Counted from the stretch's first letter, positions 33,304 through 38,855 are shown. The stretch: 64,000 nucleotides of DNA from an archaeon (GCA_024276825.1 JAJRWI010000079.1:1-64000), one strand, 5' to 3'. Numbers and translations: made by a program. The notes: generated by a model from the sequence alone, not told the origin.

Positions 33304-33669
33304 ATGTTGTCGAAAGACAGTAAGCAAGCATTTATAGCGCTATTTCCATTGGCTGCACTAGGAATAACTGCATTTTTCAATCTGGGAGAACTCCATGTTG
33401 TTCAAGGCAATATTATCGATGTTCTATATGTCTATGGATACATCAATATGAATGATACAGTTCCACTTTGGATCCTCACACTTCTTTTTGGAACGGGAGG
33501 ATATGCATTCTATTTCTTAGGAACAACTTGGGCCCAATTGAAAGCAATAGCTAATTTGTATTCAATTCCTTGGGCAGCTGCTGCGATTATTCTCGCAGCG
33601 TTTGGTGCCGAGCCAGCTGCGGCAGCTGCTGGTTTAATTGGTCTGGCATATGTCACCGTTGGGGCATAG
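33304..33669 (+). CDS. Putative circular (head-to-tail) bacteriocin-like precursor
   Basis: 121 aa from ATG 33304 (AAGGGG upstream); signal-like N-terminus; hydrophobic Ala/Gly-rich C-terminus; first gene of a SpoIIM/Yip1/ABC operon. Confidence 0.65.
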   Translation: MLSKDSKQAFIALFPLAALGITAFFNLGELHVVQGNIIDVLYVYGYINMNDTVPLWILTLLFGTGGYAFYFLGTTWAQLKAIANLYSIPWAAAAIILAAFGAEPAAAAAGLIGLAYVTVGA

Positions 33670-33703
33670 CGAATTAGTAATGGATTATGGGGGATTCAAC
33701 TCA

Positions 33704-34255
33704 ATGATTTCAATGAAGTATTCCTCAACAATTCTAATATTGGGCATGCTGTTGGGGATTCTGGCTGGAACTACTGAGAATATTGATTCATCATCTCCAA
33801 AGAACATTGATTTTGCCTACCATCCCTCTTTTTTTTCCATCTTATGTAATAACATTGGAGTTGTATTAACCCTTATTCTAGGTGGAATTATCCTATTTTC
33901 CATCCCCACCATATTAGTGGTATTATTAAATGGTATTCGTACTGGTCTGACAATTATGATATGTATCAGAAGCTCAAATCTCATGCCCATATTGGCAGGC
34001 ATTCTTCCTCATGGAGTATTTGAGCTGTCTGGATATGTGTTTGCAGCCACCATAGGTCTTGAAAGTACGCGATTGATCATTGATGTGATGCTAGATGGCC
34101 CTTCAAGAAATCAAGGGCCAAGTTTGAAACAAGGCCTCAATTCTTATTTGACAAATGATTATATGAAATATATCATATTGTCAATAATTCTCATAACAAT
34201 GGGCGCATTAATTGAGAGCACATGTTCTTTATATCTGATGGAGATGTTTGCATGA
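33704..34255 (+). CDS. SpoIIM/DUF95 membrane protein
   Basis: ILCNNIGV...LLNG..G...ILPHGVFEL...GALIE family motifs. Confidence 0.9.
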   Translation: MISMKYSSTILILGMLLGILAGTTENIDSSSPKNIDFAYHPSFFSILCNNIGVVLTLILGGIILFSIPTILVVLLNGIRTGLTIMICIRSSNLMPILAGILPHGVFELSGYVFAATIGLESTRLIIDVMLDGPSRNQGPSLKQGLNSYLTNDYMKYIILSIILITMGALIESTCSLYLMEMFA

Positions 34256-34938
34256 ACGATGATCATTCTACTGATGGATCAGTGGTATCATTAGTGAACG
34301 GGTATTTAGGAGTCAAGAGCGGACTTAAGTTAATATTGCCTGCTCTTTTTAAGCCATGGAGCGCCTTTATAGAGGTTGCTGATAAGAAGTCCAGTCGAAG
34401 AATCGCATTATTTCCATTGATTGTAGTGGCATTAATGCAATTCTTGTTTATCATTCAGGTGATACTTTACATTTTTCATAAAAAGGTAATTGATGGTGAT
34501 ATAGTTCTTTTACCCGGAACAACAGAGGAAACATACTATTACTCGTTTTACACAGCGACATTGCTAAGCACAATTTCAGCAGTTGTCATCGTTTGGATGG
34601 GAGTTGCTGCAATAAGCTATTTTGTTTGCAGATTGATGAATTATCAATTGAACTTCGGGCAGCTTCTAACATTATCCTCATTTTCCTTACTTCCAACAGC
34701 GATAAGTATGTCAATTGGCACAACCATTTTGATATTCTTAGGTCCTGAAGTACTATTTGCTTGGGCTAACACTATTCAACTTTTTGCAATAATGAATGGG
34801 ACAATCATAATATGGGAGAGCATTATTTTGATGTATATACTAGTCAATCTTGCTGACATCAACACAAAAAGGGCTTTCATTGTAGGGATCATATCTTCAG
34901 TTATCCCCCATTTAATTGGACTACTGTCAATAGCCTGA
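34252..34938 (+). CDS. Yip1-family membrane protein
   Basis: LFKPWSAF, about 5 TM helices, FGQLL...FSLLP; ATGA overlap with upstream gene. Confidence 0.7.
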   Translation: MNDDHSTDGSVVSLVNGYLGVKSGLKLILPALFKPWSAFIEVADKKSSRRIALFPLIVVALMQFLFIIQVILYIFHKKVIDGDIVLLPGTTEETYYYSFYTATLLSTISAVVIVWMGVAAISYFVCRLMNYQLNFGQLLTLSSFSLLPTAISMSIGTTILIFLGPEVLFAWANTIQLFAIMNGTIIIWESIILMYILVNLADINTKRAFIVGIISSVIPHLIGLLSIA

Positions 34939-34940
34939 AG

Positions 34941-36416: not shown

Positions 36417-37159
36417 ATGCAGATTCAATATCAAGACCTGCAGTTGTTGTAAGAAATGTTACAAAGAAATATGGTAAACTCACAGTCCTTGATAACATTA
36501 GCTTCAATATTAGCCATGATGAGGTTGTAGGGCTTGTCGGGCCAAATGGATCAGGAAAGAGCACTTTACTAAGAATTCTGAAGGGAGGACTTTATCCTAC
36601 AACTGGTGAGGTTATTATTGGGAACTTCAGTATCAATAAGCAGCCTGACTCTATTCGAAGAATAACAGGAATCGCACATGATGAGCCTGTTCTTTTCGAA
36701 ATGATGACAGGGATGCAGTTCTTGCATTTCGTTGCAAGTATTTATCGGGTCAAACCACAAACAGCAAAAGAGTCTATTGGCTATTGGGTCAGGGCTCTTG
36801 GCCTAGACAATCAAATCAGAAACAGGATTGAAACATATTCCCATGGAATGAAAAAGAGACTTTCAATAGTCGCTTCATTGATTCATGATCCATTTCTATT
36901 ACTCCTTGATGAACCAACACAGGGACTAGATCCTGATACACGAACAATTTACATGCAAAGGATAATGAATAATGCATTTAAATCAGACAGAGTTGTAATA
37001 ATAAGCACGCACAGATTGGATATTATTGATGATTTGTGCTCGCGAGTATTAGTAATTCGAGGGGGCAGAATTATTGAAGATGGTTCGATTGAATTCATAA
37101 AAACAAAATACAATGCTGATGACATTGAAGAGGCGTATCTTCTCACTGATGATGAATAG
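36413..37159 (+). CDS. ABC transporter ATP-binding protein
   Basis: GPNGSGKST, YSHGMKKR, LLLDEP, STH. Confidence 0.95.
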   Translation: MNADSISRPAVVVRNVTKKYGKLTVLDNISFNISHDEVVGLVGPNGSGKSTLLRILKGGLYPTTGEVIIGNFSINKQPDSIRRITGIAHDEPVLFEMMTGMQFLHFVASIYRVKPQTAKESIGYWVRALGLDNQIRNRIETYSHGMKKRLSIVASLIHDPFLLLLDEPTQGLDPDTRTIYMQRIMNNAFKSDRVVIISTHRLDIIDDLCSRVLVIRGGRIIEDGSIEFIKTKYNADDIEEAYLLTDDE

Positions 37160-37174
37160 GGAGATCTCATTGGA

Positions 37175-38116
37175 ATGAAAATAGTTGTTAGGAATGTTTC
37201 ATATAAATATGGTCGCAAGAAGGCACTTGATAATATTTCATTAGATATAGGACCGGGAGTAACTGGACTCATCGGAGTAAATGGCTCAGGAAAAACAACC
37301 CTGTTGAAATTGATACTCGGAATCATTCCAATTCAAGAGGGCGAGATATTAATCAATGATTCCCCAGTGCCCATTAAAGATAAAGAGAAACTTGTTGAAA
37401 TTGGATATATCCCCGAAATACCTGCATTAGATAATGAATTGACCTTACATGAATACCTTGGCTTCTTTCTGAGTATTTTGGAAACTGCTGGGGGTAAAAC
37501 AACAGGACTTGATGAAATCATAGAAATTGTCGGACTGGGCGATGCCAAGAATAGAAGAATATCTGACTATTCACGTGGAATGAAACAGAGGGCCTGCATT
37601 AGTCAATCCATATTGTGCAAGAGAAGGATATTAATCCTTGATGAGCCCCTCTCACATTTGGACCCTCTTAGTAGAATCCAATTCAAGGAGCTATTCAGAG
37701 AATGTGCTGATGATGGGGCAATAGTATTAATCTCCTCACACATTCTAGGCGAGCTGGATGAAATATGCGACAATGTCGTTATTCTGAATGACGGAAAATT
37801 AATTGAATATGGAGCAATTGGTCAATTAAGAAACAAATATGAATCTAATGTGGTTCAATGGGTTATAGAAACAGATAGCCCGATAGAATTGGCAGATCTA
37901 ATTGAAAATGAGCTTAACCCTTCGGCGATCGAAGTCATAGGTAATGTAATCAGGGTGCTAGTCGGGTCTAATCCCAGAATGAAAAGCTTGTTTTTTGGAT
38001 TGCTGGCAAGGACATGTAATATTGAAATCTTCAGGTTCTATGATAGAAGTTTGAGCCTTGAGGGCATATTGAAAAGAAGCATGGGGGACAATAAGAATGA
38101 ATCGCAAATTCATTAA
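37175..38116 (+). CDS. ABC transporter ATP-binding protein with C-terminal extension
   Basis: GVNGSGKTT, YSRGMKQR, LILDEP, SSH, SLE near C-terminus. Confidence 0.95.
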   Translation: MKIVVRNVSYKYGRKKALDNISLDIGPGVTGLIGVNGSGKTTLLKLILGIIPIQEGEILINDSPVPIKDKEKLVEIGYIPEIPALDNELTLHEYLGFFLSILETAGGKTTGLDEIIEIVGLGDAKNRRISDYSRGMKQRACISQSILCKRRILILDEPLSHLDPLSRIQFKELFRECADDGAIVLISSHILGELDEICDNVVILNDGKLIEYGAIGQLRNKYESNVVQWVIETDSPIELADLIENELNPSAIEVIGNVIRVLVGSNPRMKSLFFGLLARTCNIEIFRFYDRSLSLEGILKRSMGDNKNESQIH

Positions 38117-38855
38117 GGAGATTATAAAGAGGGAATACCGAATATTTGCAAAAGGCCATCAATTCATTATTGTTCTGGCATTCTCTGTGGCAGTTGCAGT
38201 GCTCCTATTTACTTCAATAGTAACCTTATCAAAAGATGTTATAGATCTCTTGTTTTCTCAATTTGAGATCGGGTACTATTTCTTAACAAGCTATGCAATC
38301 ATCCTATTTGGAGTAATCACCATATTCAATTCAGCAACAGGATTTTCACGTGAACATGAACACAACATGCATCAGGTCTTATACATCCTTCCAATTGACA
38401 CTTCAAGTGTGATTATCGGAAAAGCGCTAGCCATATGGTCTTGCACCATTCTTACCACTTCGATACCATATTTCACAATCATCATAACACTGATTGCTTT
38501 TCTTGGTTTGCAGGTATCTATTTGGATTGTTATTGAGCTATATGCCATCTTTGCTTTTTCCATGATTCTATTGTCAAGCTATTCCATGATCGCATCTATT
38601 GTTTCAAAGTCCAATGGAGTTTCATTCTCGATTAGTCTAATGACTTTGATAGGCGCAATTATGCTTAAGGAAAATAGAGTCCTAAAATATCCATCCCCAT
38701 TTGGATTCTTTGATTATTTGACATATGGTGTTGTGATTCATGAGTTAGACCCAATAGCTGTGTTTATTTTCTTATTCGCCTGTGCCATGGGCATTATGAG
38801 TTCTCTTGCGATGTCATGGTTTCTTTTTGAGAGGAGAGCAGCATACATGTTTTAG
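38097..38855 (+). CDS. ABC-2 type permease
   Basis: IIKREYR, SREHE..M..L..LP....IIGK, six TM helices, FERR. Confidence 0.88.
   Translation: MNRKFIKEIIKREYRIFAKGHQFIIVLAFSVAVAVLLFTSIVTLSKDVIDLLFSQFEIGYYFLTSYAIILFGVITIFNSATGFSREHEHNMHQVLYILPIDTSSVIIGKALAIWSCTILTTSIPYFTIIITLIAFLGLQVSIWIVIELYAIFAFSMILLSSYSMIASIVSKSNGVSFSISLMTLIGAIMLKENRVLKYPSPFGFFDYLTYGVVIHELDPIAVFIFLFACAMGIMSSLAMSWFLFERRAAYMF

Follow-up and report, generated by a model that had tools for sequence, protein, structure and literature searches.

A seven-gene operon with DUF95, Yip1 and ABC transporter genes

Within a 64,000-nucleotide stretch of DNA from an archaeal genome assembly (GCA_024276825.1, JAJRWI010000079.1:1-64000; hereafter the window), ORF reading delineated seven co-directional, coupled genes at positions 33304–38855, all on the plus strand. 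An earlier note on this DNA had described seven co-directional and mostly overlapping or abutting genes, and all seven ORFs were found as described; its assignments to the SpoIIM/DUF95, Yip1 and ABC ATPase families were likewise upheld by Pfam profile search. The note had also called the host Asgard-like, and the genome is indeed that of an Asgard archaeon, on the basis of a eukaryote-type actin that it encodes (435 bits) and of a related locus labelled Promethearchaeota.

The first gene (33304..33669, +) encodes a small hydrophobic protein of 121 aa, our candidate precursor, with a longer frame possible from 33286. Ahead of it we read a putative archaeal promoter and ribosome-binding region (33255..33303, +), comprising a TATA-like A/T-rich stretch about 35 nt upstream of the gene and a ribosome-binding-like site, AAGGGGAT, 5 nt 5' of the ATG; a bacterial-type promoter scan, which is not applicable to an archaeon, gave no enrichment. 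The second gene (33704..34255, +) encodes a SpoIIM/DUF95 membrane protein (Pfam PF01944, E 3.4e-25) of 183 aa from its likely start at 33704, which is preceded by GGGGGAT within an ORF open from 33638, and the protein carries LPHGVFE, an instance of the family motif PHG(I/V)FE. A Yip1-domain membrane protein follows (34252..34938, +; PF04893, E 8.3e-10), whose ORF is open from 34222 and whose likely start at 34252 lies in an ATGA overlapping the DUF95 stop.

The remaining four genes appear to form two transporter pairs, with both ABC ATPases having a membrane-protein gene as neighbour, either before or after. The fourth gene (34941..36416, +) encodes a 491-aa polytopic membrane protein that belongs to no Pfam family and whose AF2 model, unreliable at pLDDT 44.5, is helical throughout. 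It has homologues in this archaeal family alone, each adjoining a gene of the ATPase-1 type, and it is presumed to be the ABC exporter membrane component paired with ATPase 1 (36413..37159, +; 248 aa; PF00005, 1e-27), a protein of the DrrA/ABC-2 exporter subfamily whose best NCBIfam match, drrA, falls below its cut-off and whose start overlaps the preceding stop by 4 bases, coupling the two translationally. ATPase 2 (37175..38116, +; 313 aa; PF00005, 2e-27) has a C-terminal extension of GldA/NodI-like length, and its best NCBIfam matches, GldA_ABC_ATP and a lantibiotic-protection ATPase, are again below cut-off. The last gene (38097..38855, +) encodes a 252-aa membrane protein with a weak ABC2_membrane_4 match (E 0.006, 17 bits vs. 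a cut-off of 27) and comes after ATPase 2 in all related loci, making it the probable ABC-2-type permease partner of that ATPase. The packed operon holds no further small ORF, and hence no dedicated small immunity gene, and inside it there is neither a peptidase gene nor a YknX-type adaptor gene.

Related loci and the small hydrophobic protein

The same seven genes occur in identical order in a genome of another genus (G014, L017 2014-7597) and on metagenome contig FWPU01008271 (L018 8001-13562), and because this order recurs the arrangement is beyond chance. In all three genomes the small gene is the operon's first, 29–39 nt 5' of DUF95, with the other operon proteins only 22–47% identical. 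That the small ORF is functionally unlinked to the transporter genes and merely happens to adjoin them is highly improbable and already disfavoured by this conserved synteny: such a reading can draw on the ORF having no family and on the genes being predictions only, but the small gene keeps its place beside proteins that have diverged this far, the small proteins align with pairwise z-scores of 7–20 vs. shuffles, and the gene has a ribosome-binding-like site of its own.

In a third genus (G010) the locus is rearranged, and a different small hydrophobic, Ala/Gly-rich gene, transcribed on its own and unrecognisably unlike that of the window, lies between two transporter units. Overall, the distribution is patchy, with a close DUF95 in 4 of the 86 genomes of the family, the full seven-gene set in 3 of these 86 plus one metagenome contig, and no such operon in the two other genomes of the window's own genus. 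The earlier note had proposed that homologous DUF95-Yip1-ABC loci consistently lacking a small hydrophobic precursor gene would speak against its interpretation; every complete homologous locus carries a small hydrophobic gene, and the related loci leave no space for a small immunity gene.

The small protein begins with a Lys-rich tip and a 17-residue hydrophobic stretch, together a leader- or signal-like N-terminus of about 30–36 aa, and continues into a core of about 85 aa that is rich in Ala/Gly and aromatics and has Ala as its final residue. Aligning the orthologues reveals a variable linker and then a conserved core start with I/F, within the block (I/F)I(D/N)VL, which agrees with a reported requirement that the first residue be hydrophobic and helix-forming (PMC10028692). 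The proposed cut site reads N|I in the window protein and H|F and S|F in its orthologues. Two of the three orthologues end in Ala, as the G010 small protein does, but the G014 orthologue ends in Glu. Circularin A fails to mature when its terminal residues are charged (PMC10028692), and this one orthologue, like the shifting cut site, counts against a circular-bacteriocin reading.

Searches for relatives of the small protein returned no family in Pfam or NCBIfam at E<=1 and, by profile search, no PDB chain at E<=10. Its AF2 model is weak (mean pLDDT 59.7), comprises six helices, as against the compact saposin-like fold of 4–5 helices expected of a circular-bacteriocin core, and has no PDB fold match at E<=0.001. 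By Pfam/NCBIfam and hhalign (only 0.1–1.2% against known precursor families) the protein lies outside the recognised circular-bacteriocin families PF09221, PF12173, PF16942 and TIGR03651, and among 1.8 billion proteins it has three representatives, the window's own included. The language-model clusters nearest to it include PF12173 (0.83), PF09221 (0.80) and PF16942 (0.80), all below the tool's line of 0.9 and thus a lead only. In composition the core resembles five annotated circular-bacteriocin precursors in GRAVY (1.08–1.45 vs. 0.93–1.29) and in Ala+Gly content (29–33% vs. 25–40%), but with 0–1 basic residues, a pI of 4–6 and 11–14 aromatics it is unlike the characterised circular bacteriocins. 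Judged from these sequence features, the first gene of this Asgard operon plausibly represents an undescribed candidate precursor family.

The small proteins are also 37–43% identical to one another, compared with 22–30% for DUF95, Yip1 and the 491-aa protein, making them the best-conserved non-ATPase component, a degree of conservation that suggests a structural subunit at least as readily as a bacteriocin. The main rival reading, which we consider rather unlikely, is accordingly a membrane transport complex in which the small protein stays in the membrane as an integral, stable subunit with 3–4 helices and an uncleaved N-terminal anchor and works alongside DUF95, Yip1 and a pair of ABC-2-type exporters to export or flip another substrate, such as a lipid, glycan or hydrophobic metabolite, or to maintain the envelope. 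Alongside its conservation, the protein's four hydrophobic segments and its lack of homology to any bacteriocin are consistent with such a subunit, as are ATPases of the general DrrA/ABC-2 exporter group and a pair of ATPase-1 type and large membrane protein that stands alone in 10 related genomes. Equally strong hydrophobic windows are found in annotated circular-bacteriocin precursors, however, so that a transmembrane look does not discriminate, and the C-terminal helices in the low-confidence model, at 9–17 residues, are short for membrane spans. An unrecognisably different and separately transcribed small gene in G010 would further be odd for an obligate subunit, and presence in so few genomes of the family argues against a core envelope function.

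DUF95 loci and circular-bacteriocin clusters

In the literature, SpoIIM is called class-defining for circular bacteriocins, with precursor, SpoIIM and transporter as the minimum set, and Yip1 genes are common beside the accessory ABC genes of these clusters (PMC6131525; PMC8659200). Both statements of the earlier note on this point, that a precursor with DUF95/SpoIIM, ABC ATPase and membrane proteins is the circular-bacteriocin layout and that Yip1 accompanies some such clusters, are thereby borne out, as they are by annotated records. When the window DUF95 was searched against plasmids with tblastn, all five matches fell in genes annotated 'stage II sporulation protein M'; each of the four plasmid records examined has an annotated circular-bacteriocin precursor nearby. 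Collectively, the annotated circular-bacteriocin clusters on plasmids hold counterparts of all seven genes.

DUF95 is nonetheless not specific to bacteriocin loci and mostly occurs outside them: among 80 chromosomal DUF95 loci, none had a recognisable circularin- or plantacyclin-type precursor and only two shared the window's module. Outside bacteriocin loci, DUF95 also turns up beside ABC genes and genes for large membrane proteins in the absence of a small gene, as in an actinomycete locus ordered membrane protein-ATPase-DUF95-membrane protein-ATPase, and this too favours the transport-complex alternative.

We compared the operon with several characterised systems, beginning with the subgroup-ii clusters of gassericin A, acidocin B, plantaricyclin A and plantacyclin B21AG (Pfam PF12173). 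The plantacyclin B21AG cluster on pB21AG01 has seven genes, as here (PMC7452424), and likewise places the precursor directly before SpoIIM/DUF95, followed by an ABC ATPase and an ABC-2 permease; hhalign matched its DUF95 to that of the window at 92%. Its precursor, with a 33-aa leader containing a hydrophobic stretch and an Ala/Gly-rich, very hydrophobic core ending in Ala, parallels the window's small protein, yet hhalign and Pfam detect no homology between the two. The cores also differ, at about 85 residues, acidic and aromatic-rich, vs. 58 residues in subgroup ii, and the Asn|Ile cleavage of that subgroup is echoed by N|I in the window protein only, not in its orthologues. pB21AG01 further carries, between its DUF95 and ATPase genes, a 54-aa ORF named immunity protein PlcI (PMC7452424) that has no equivalent in the window, which in turn has an extra Yip1 protein, the 491-aa membrane protein, a second ATPase and an archaeal host.

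Clusters of the uberolysin/carnocyclin/circularin type share the window's inventory in a different gene order. A C. beijerinckii DSM 791 plasmid (circularin A type) encodes precursor, a 581-aa membrane protein, SpoIIM, ABC ATPase and accessory ABC, and B. cereus pFORC087.2 encodes ABC ATPase, permease, Yip1, two precursors, a 543-aa membrane protein, SpoIIM and ATPase. Against annotated circular-bacteriocin clusters, hhalign gave 99% for DUF95 (four clusters) and 100% for the ATPases, and no similarity for precursors or large membrane proteins (0.1%). The 491-aa protein adjoins an ATPase gene as CirB does, and no similarity to CirB-type large membrane proteins was found, a weak negative because the method used also missed a Yip1-vs.-Yip1 control. 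The precursors of these clusters, at 67–76 aa, cationic and ending in Trp or Tyr, are unlike the window protein.

More generally, known precursors have leaders of 2–56 aa and a core that is helical and hydrophobic and both begins and ends with a hydrophobic residue (PMC10028692), and the window core of about 85 aa compares with 58–76 in known circular bacteriocins. Altitudin S of Bacillus altitudinis, with a 132-aa precursor, a 56-aa leader and a 76-residue ring (bioRxiv 10.1101/2025.10.31.685828), shows that a length of 121 aa lies within the span of known precursors, although altitudin S itself, with a pI of about 11, is strongly cationic and of low hydrophobicity and has an M48 peptidase in its cluster, unlike the acidic core and peptidase-free operon described here.

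A further comparison concerns YknWXYZ of B. subtilis, a Yip1-type YknW with an ABC exporter that reportedly protects against the SDP peptide and that, like the window, encodes a Yip1-domain protein with an ABC ATPase and permease. An immunity-only island, improbable in our judgement, would work in the same manner: Yip1, together with both ABC exporters, would pump out membrane-active peptides of neighbours, as YknWXYZ or lantibiotic LanFEG do, and the small protein would be an immunity protein, not a precursor. Circular-bacteriocin immunity proteins are small and hydrophobic, PlcI of pB21AG01 being an example, the operon has no other small gene, and the ATPase matches include lantibiotic-protection and PSM-export families, albeit below cut-off. 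The Yip1 protein does match YknW_fam in NCBIfam, but weakly (17.9 bits vs. a cut-off of 110), no YknX-type adaptor is encoded, and the window adds DUF95 and a small leader-bearing protein to what YknWXYZ comprises. Known immunity peptides, moreover, are cationic and shorter than the window's small protein, which has 121 aa, is acidic and has a leader-like N-terminus. The first gene, directly 5' of DUF95, also occupies the precursor's place in pB21AG01, and SpoIIM/DUF95 is tied to production as well as immunity (PMC6131525).

A candidate route to a circular peptide

From gene content and sequence comparison, the reading we prefer, and to which we give an even chance of being correct, is that the operon is a circular-bacteriocin-type system that makes a peptide, exports it and protects the producer, built on an undescribed precursor family. 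The earlier note's inference of a complete antimicrobial-peptide maturation, export and immunity system goes beyond what the loci support, with a small protein outside the known precursor families, no small immunity gene, no CirB similarity found, and a DUF95 family mostly present elsewhere.

Taking the gene assignments as given, we infer a route of four steps. The first gene would be translated into a 121-aa precursor, whose N-terminal 30–36 residues (the basic tip and hydrophobic stretch) would serve as a leader or membrane-targeting segment and be removed just ahead of the conserved block (I/F)I(D/N)VL. The resulting core, about 85 residues long, acidic to neutral, very hydrophobic and helical, would then be handled at the membrane by SpoIIM/DUF95 acting with the 491-aa protein and ATPase 1, as the counterpart of CirB-CirC-CirD, and would probably be joined head to tail before release. 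Finally, Yip1, ATPase 2 and the ABC-2-like permease may form an accessory exporter that clears the producer's membrane of peptide and so confers immunity. The more specific claim, of an Asgard head-to-tail cyclised peptide with an acidic and aromatic-rich ring of about 85 residues, whose precursor family has no sequence relation to any bacterial one and whose maturation falls to SpoIIM/DUF95 with a lineage-specific ABC exporter, we put forward tentatively, as possible but less likely than not.

Archaea have so far yielded few known ribosomal antimicrobial peptides, and in the literature searched we found no link between circular bacteriocins and Asgard archaea, the slow-growing syntrophs that are the closest prokaryotic relatives of eukaryotes. 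If true, the more specific claim would give archaea their first circular bacteriocin, with a ring larger than any other of its class, would extend the DUF95 route across both prokaryotic domains, and would bear, as an Asgard peptide weapon, on how slow-growing syntrophs compete in sediments. The mechanism of leader removal and ring closure is still unexplained even in bacteria (PMC8659200), and in so divergent a system only DUF95 and the ABC ATPases stay recognisable, which, should the product prove cyclic, would narrow the search for the catalytic core. Should the small protein instead be a membrane subunit, the locus would define a new DUF95/Yip1-assisted ABC exporter, a finding of narrower interest. 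For a ring made of residues 37–121, the predicted cyclic mass is about 8915 Da (average), and its junction would read ...TVGA-IIDV....

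The seven-gene operon and its host

The seven co-directional genes proposed in the earlier note are present as ORFs on the + strand at 33304-38855, separated by gaps of 0-34 nt or by short overlaps. The first encodes a hydrophobic protein of 121 aa, with its ATG at 33304 preceded by AAGGGGAT, and is followed on the same strand by genes for a SpoIIM/DUF95 protein (PF01944, E 3.4e-25; motif LPHGVFE), whose likely start at 33704 is preceded by GGGGGAT, and for a Yip1-domain protein (PF04893, E 8.3e-10), which probably starts at 34252 in an ATGA overlapping the DUF95 stop; the sequence itself served to refine these probable starts. 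Downstream lie genes for a polytopic membrane protein of 491 aa that belongs to no Pfam family, two ABC ATPases (PF00005, 1e-27 and 2e-27) and a membrane protein of 252 aa. Profile searches recovered the SpoIIM and Yip1 families that had been named beforehand, and the 252-aa protein, the putative permease, drew only a weak ABC-2 match in Pfam (E 0.006, below cut-off). With about as much confidence as doubt, we read these genes as an operon of circular-bacteriocin type for production, export and immunity that has a precursor family not yet described; its small protein would lose a leader, be cyclised and exported, and yield an active product.

The host is Asgard-like, as previously suggested: its assembly (2.9 Mb, 98% complete) encodes a eukaryote-type actin (435 bits). 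Within window positions 32001-40000, the GC content of the operon is 0.37-0.40 compared with 0.46-0.47 in both flanks. This difference amounts to 9 points in the window and to 1-4 points in three other hosts, with operon GC following each host's own, and we consequently do not take the low GC as a sign of recent transfer. Just 3' of the operon, at 39189-39638 (- strand), lies a gene for a 149-aa leucine-rich-repeat protein, before a B12-dependent mutase gene.

Conservation and modularity among relatives

All seven genes occur in identical order in G014, a genome from another genus of the same family (locus L017, 2014-7597), and on the metagenome contig FWPU01008271 (L018, 8001-13562). Compared with the window's proteins, the ATPases are 41-47% identical and the small protein 37-43%; values for the DUF95 protein, Yip1, the permease and the 491-aa protein are 22-30%, such that the small protein is better conserved than most of its supposed machinery (DUF95, Yip1 and the 491-aa protein), a point against a circular bacteriocin.

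Elsewhere, the set is found in parts. The genome G010 carries it in three pieces: DUF95-Yip1-ATPase2-permease, a convergent small hydrophobic gene, and ATPase1 followed by the large membrane protein. RBin_111 (G349, locus L023) retains just DUF95-Yip1-ATPase2 and a shortened permease, and this locus is a decayed or rearranged copy, since it lacks the small gene, ATPase 1 and the large membrane protein. The locus is of G010 type, and its ABC-2-like permease retains 161 of 288 residues (contig C134, L023 3794-4279); an unrelated gene for a 1322-aa surface-repeat protein comes next. Across the family, a close DUF95 occurs in 4 of 86 genomes and a close large membrane protein in three; neither was found in the two other genomes of the window's genus. 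A further 10 genomes contain more distant pairs of ATPase1 and large membrane protein on their own, with DUF95, Yip1 and any small gene absent. From the split in G010, the remnant in RBin_111 and these stand-alone pairs, the operon looks modular, with the small gene and DUF95, then Yip1, ATPase2 and the permease, and finally ATPase1 and the large membrane protein as its modules.

The stand-alone unit (L116-L125, in G355, G342, G373, G350, G343, G369, G366, G345, G371 and G372, from two genera of this archaeal family) consists of a DrrA-type ABC ATPase gene followed by one for a polytopic membrane protein of 545-548 aa and no known family, in varied neighbourhoods. The latter shows distant homology to the 491-aa protein of the window, and G010's large membrane protein is closer to these 545-548 aa proteins than to the window's.

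Comparison with annotated circular-bacteriocin clusters

SpoIIM is present in all circular-bacteriocin clusters, the minimal cluster having five to seven genes (PMC6131525), and a working definition combines precursor, SpoIIM and transporter, with Yip1 common beside accessory ABC genes (PMC8659200). When 72,556 plasmids were searched by tblastn with the window's DUF95 protein, five matches emerged, all five under a gene labelled 'stage II sporulation protein M'; an annotated circular-bacteriocin precursor lay nearby in each of the four records examined. A C. beijerinckii plasmid carries a precursor, a 581-aa membrane protein, SpoIIM, an ATPase and accessory ABC genes; B. cereus pFORC087.2 has a similar set plus a Yip1 gene; and pB21AG01, the plasmid of the characterised plantacyclin B21AG (PMC7452424), is ordered precursor, SpoIIM, ABC ATPase, ABC-2 permease. 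From these annotated records and the review descriptions, the operon matches such clusters in gene content and, by analogy, each of its seven genes has a counterpart there. In the literature searched, we found no paper proposing circular-bacteriocin-type loci with a small protein and SpoIIM in Asgard archaea.

Profile comparison with hhalign confirmed homology of the DUF95 protein to the cluster DUF95 proteins (99%; 92% for the pB21AG01 protein) and of the window's ATPases to the cluster ATPases. Neither the small protein against known precursors (0.1-1.2%) nor the 491-aa protein against CirB-type proteins showed similarity, and these negatives are weak because the method also failed a Yip1-against-Yip1 control (0.2%). 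In a language-model atlas, three different circular-bacteriocin families were among the clusters nearest the small protein, at 0.80-0.83, below the tool's reliability line; the G010 small protein had no usable match there.

By this analogy the locus would function as a circular-bacteriocin cluster does, and it may be one. We did not file it as a member because the small protein falls within no recognised precursor family and the operon contains no small immunity gene. Both ATPases were nearest to the DrrA/GldA/lantibiotic-protection group of ABC-2 exporters (NCBIfam; all matches below cut-off). An island serving immunity only, the third-placed reading, appears improbable.

The candidate precursor and other DUF95 contexts

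The small protein is a near-orphan, with three proteins including the window's own recovered by exhaustive phmmer/HMMER searches of 1.8 billion representatives. Word-index searches with it and with the 491-aa protein returned only self matches, and a metagenome scan for it found nothing beyond contig FWPU01008271. In an alignment of the three orthologues, the basic tip and hydrophobic stretch are conserved as M-K-(K/R)-D-T-K ... A-L-(M/F)-P-L. A variable linker of 8-11 residues comes next, then the conserved blocks (I/F)I(D/N)VL..(F/Y)GYI and G(W/T)TW(A/G)Q, and finally an Ala/Gly-rich tail that varies more and has A, A or E as its last residue. A cut before the first conserved block would leave a core of 85-86 residues (GRAVY 1.1-1.45, Ala+Gly 29-32%, pI 4-6, 0-1 basic residues, 11-14 aromatics), with an N|I junction in the window's protein that is not conserved among the orthologues. 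An AF2 model of the small protein (pLDDT 59.7) had no PDB match at E<=0.001 in Foldseek; that of the 491-aa protein (11 sequences) reached pLDDT 44.5, and both models were poor.

Such a core speaks against a circular bacteriocin in being acidic and longer than any characterised ring, the largest being altitudin S at 76 residues (bioRxiv 10.1101/2025.10.31.685828). Circularin A does not mature when its terminal residues are charged (PMC10028692), and the C-terminal Glu of one orthologue likewise counts against this reading. Known leaders are 2-48 residues long, and sequence similarity among the peptides is very low (PMC6131525). The plantacyclin precursor is built like the window's, with a 33-aa leader containing a hydrophobic stretch, an Ala/Gly-rich hydrophobic core and a C-terminal Ala, and it brackets the window protein's values for both hydrophobicity and Ala/Gly content.

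The small protein of G010 gave pairwise z of at most 2.7 against the others, so that its homology was not shown and we take it as a positional analogue. Cyclic products tolerate permuted precursors, the basis for comparing it with doubled cores, but the outcome (z 2.4 for one pair, no signal for the other two) was rejected as evidence.

For circular bacteriocins, the cleavage or cyclisation enzyme is not known (PMC8659200). Directly upstream of the operon (29962-32722, - strand) is a pair of protease genes of TldD/PmbA type; such pairs also occur on the metagenome contig, 3.8 kb from the operon (L018 1383-4189), and in G342, 1.7 kb from the stand-alone ATPase and large-membrane-protein pair (L117 12069-14811). 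Microcin B17 of E. coli is a substrate for processing by TldD/E, and a role as leader peptidase is conceivable; we did not adopt the link, as these neighbouring copies represent distinct paralogues (29-30% identical) and every genome searched gave two to four or more matches of TldD type.

DUF95 contexts were mostly unrelated to bacteriocin loci, and a circularin- or plantacyclin-type precursor was recognisable in none of 80 chromosomal DUF95 loci. A bacterial locus, from the Actinomycetes MAG DS4.bin103 (L083 5158-10731), encodes a 597-aa membrane protein, an ABC ATPase, DUF95, a 532-aa membrane protein and an ABC ATPase, and lacks any small hydrophobic gene of at least 55 aa; DUF95 and ABC exporters can thus occur together where no precursor is obvious. 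Both points count against the bacteriocin reading. The main rival, a DUF95/Yip1-assisted ABC transport complex with the small protein as a membrane subunit, is possible but less likely. The protein's transmembrane look does not exclude a bacteriocin, because annotated precursors likewise show strong hydropathy peaks, and both the bacteriocin operon and the transport complex predict that the small protein binds DUF95.

DUF95/SpoIIM domains also occur in proteins separate from the operon, such as a C-terminal domain of a ~900-aa protein in most genomes of the family (~30 relatives, e.g., L006, L007 and L008) and a fusion to an RDD-like N-terminus in G360 (L152 7459-8586). The window's own genome has a further such domain at 69079-69420 of contig C80 (G000), in a 466-aa open frame at the contig end.
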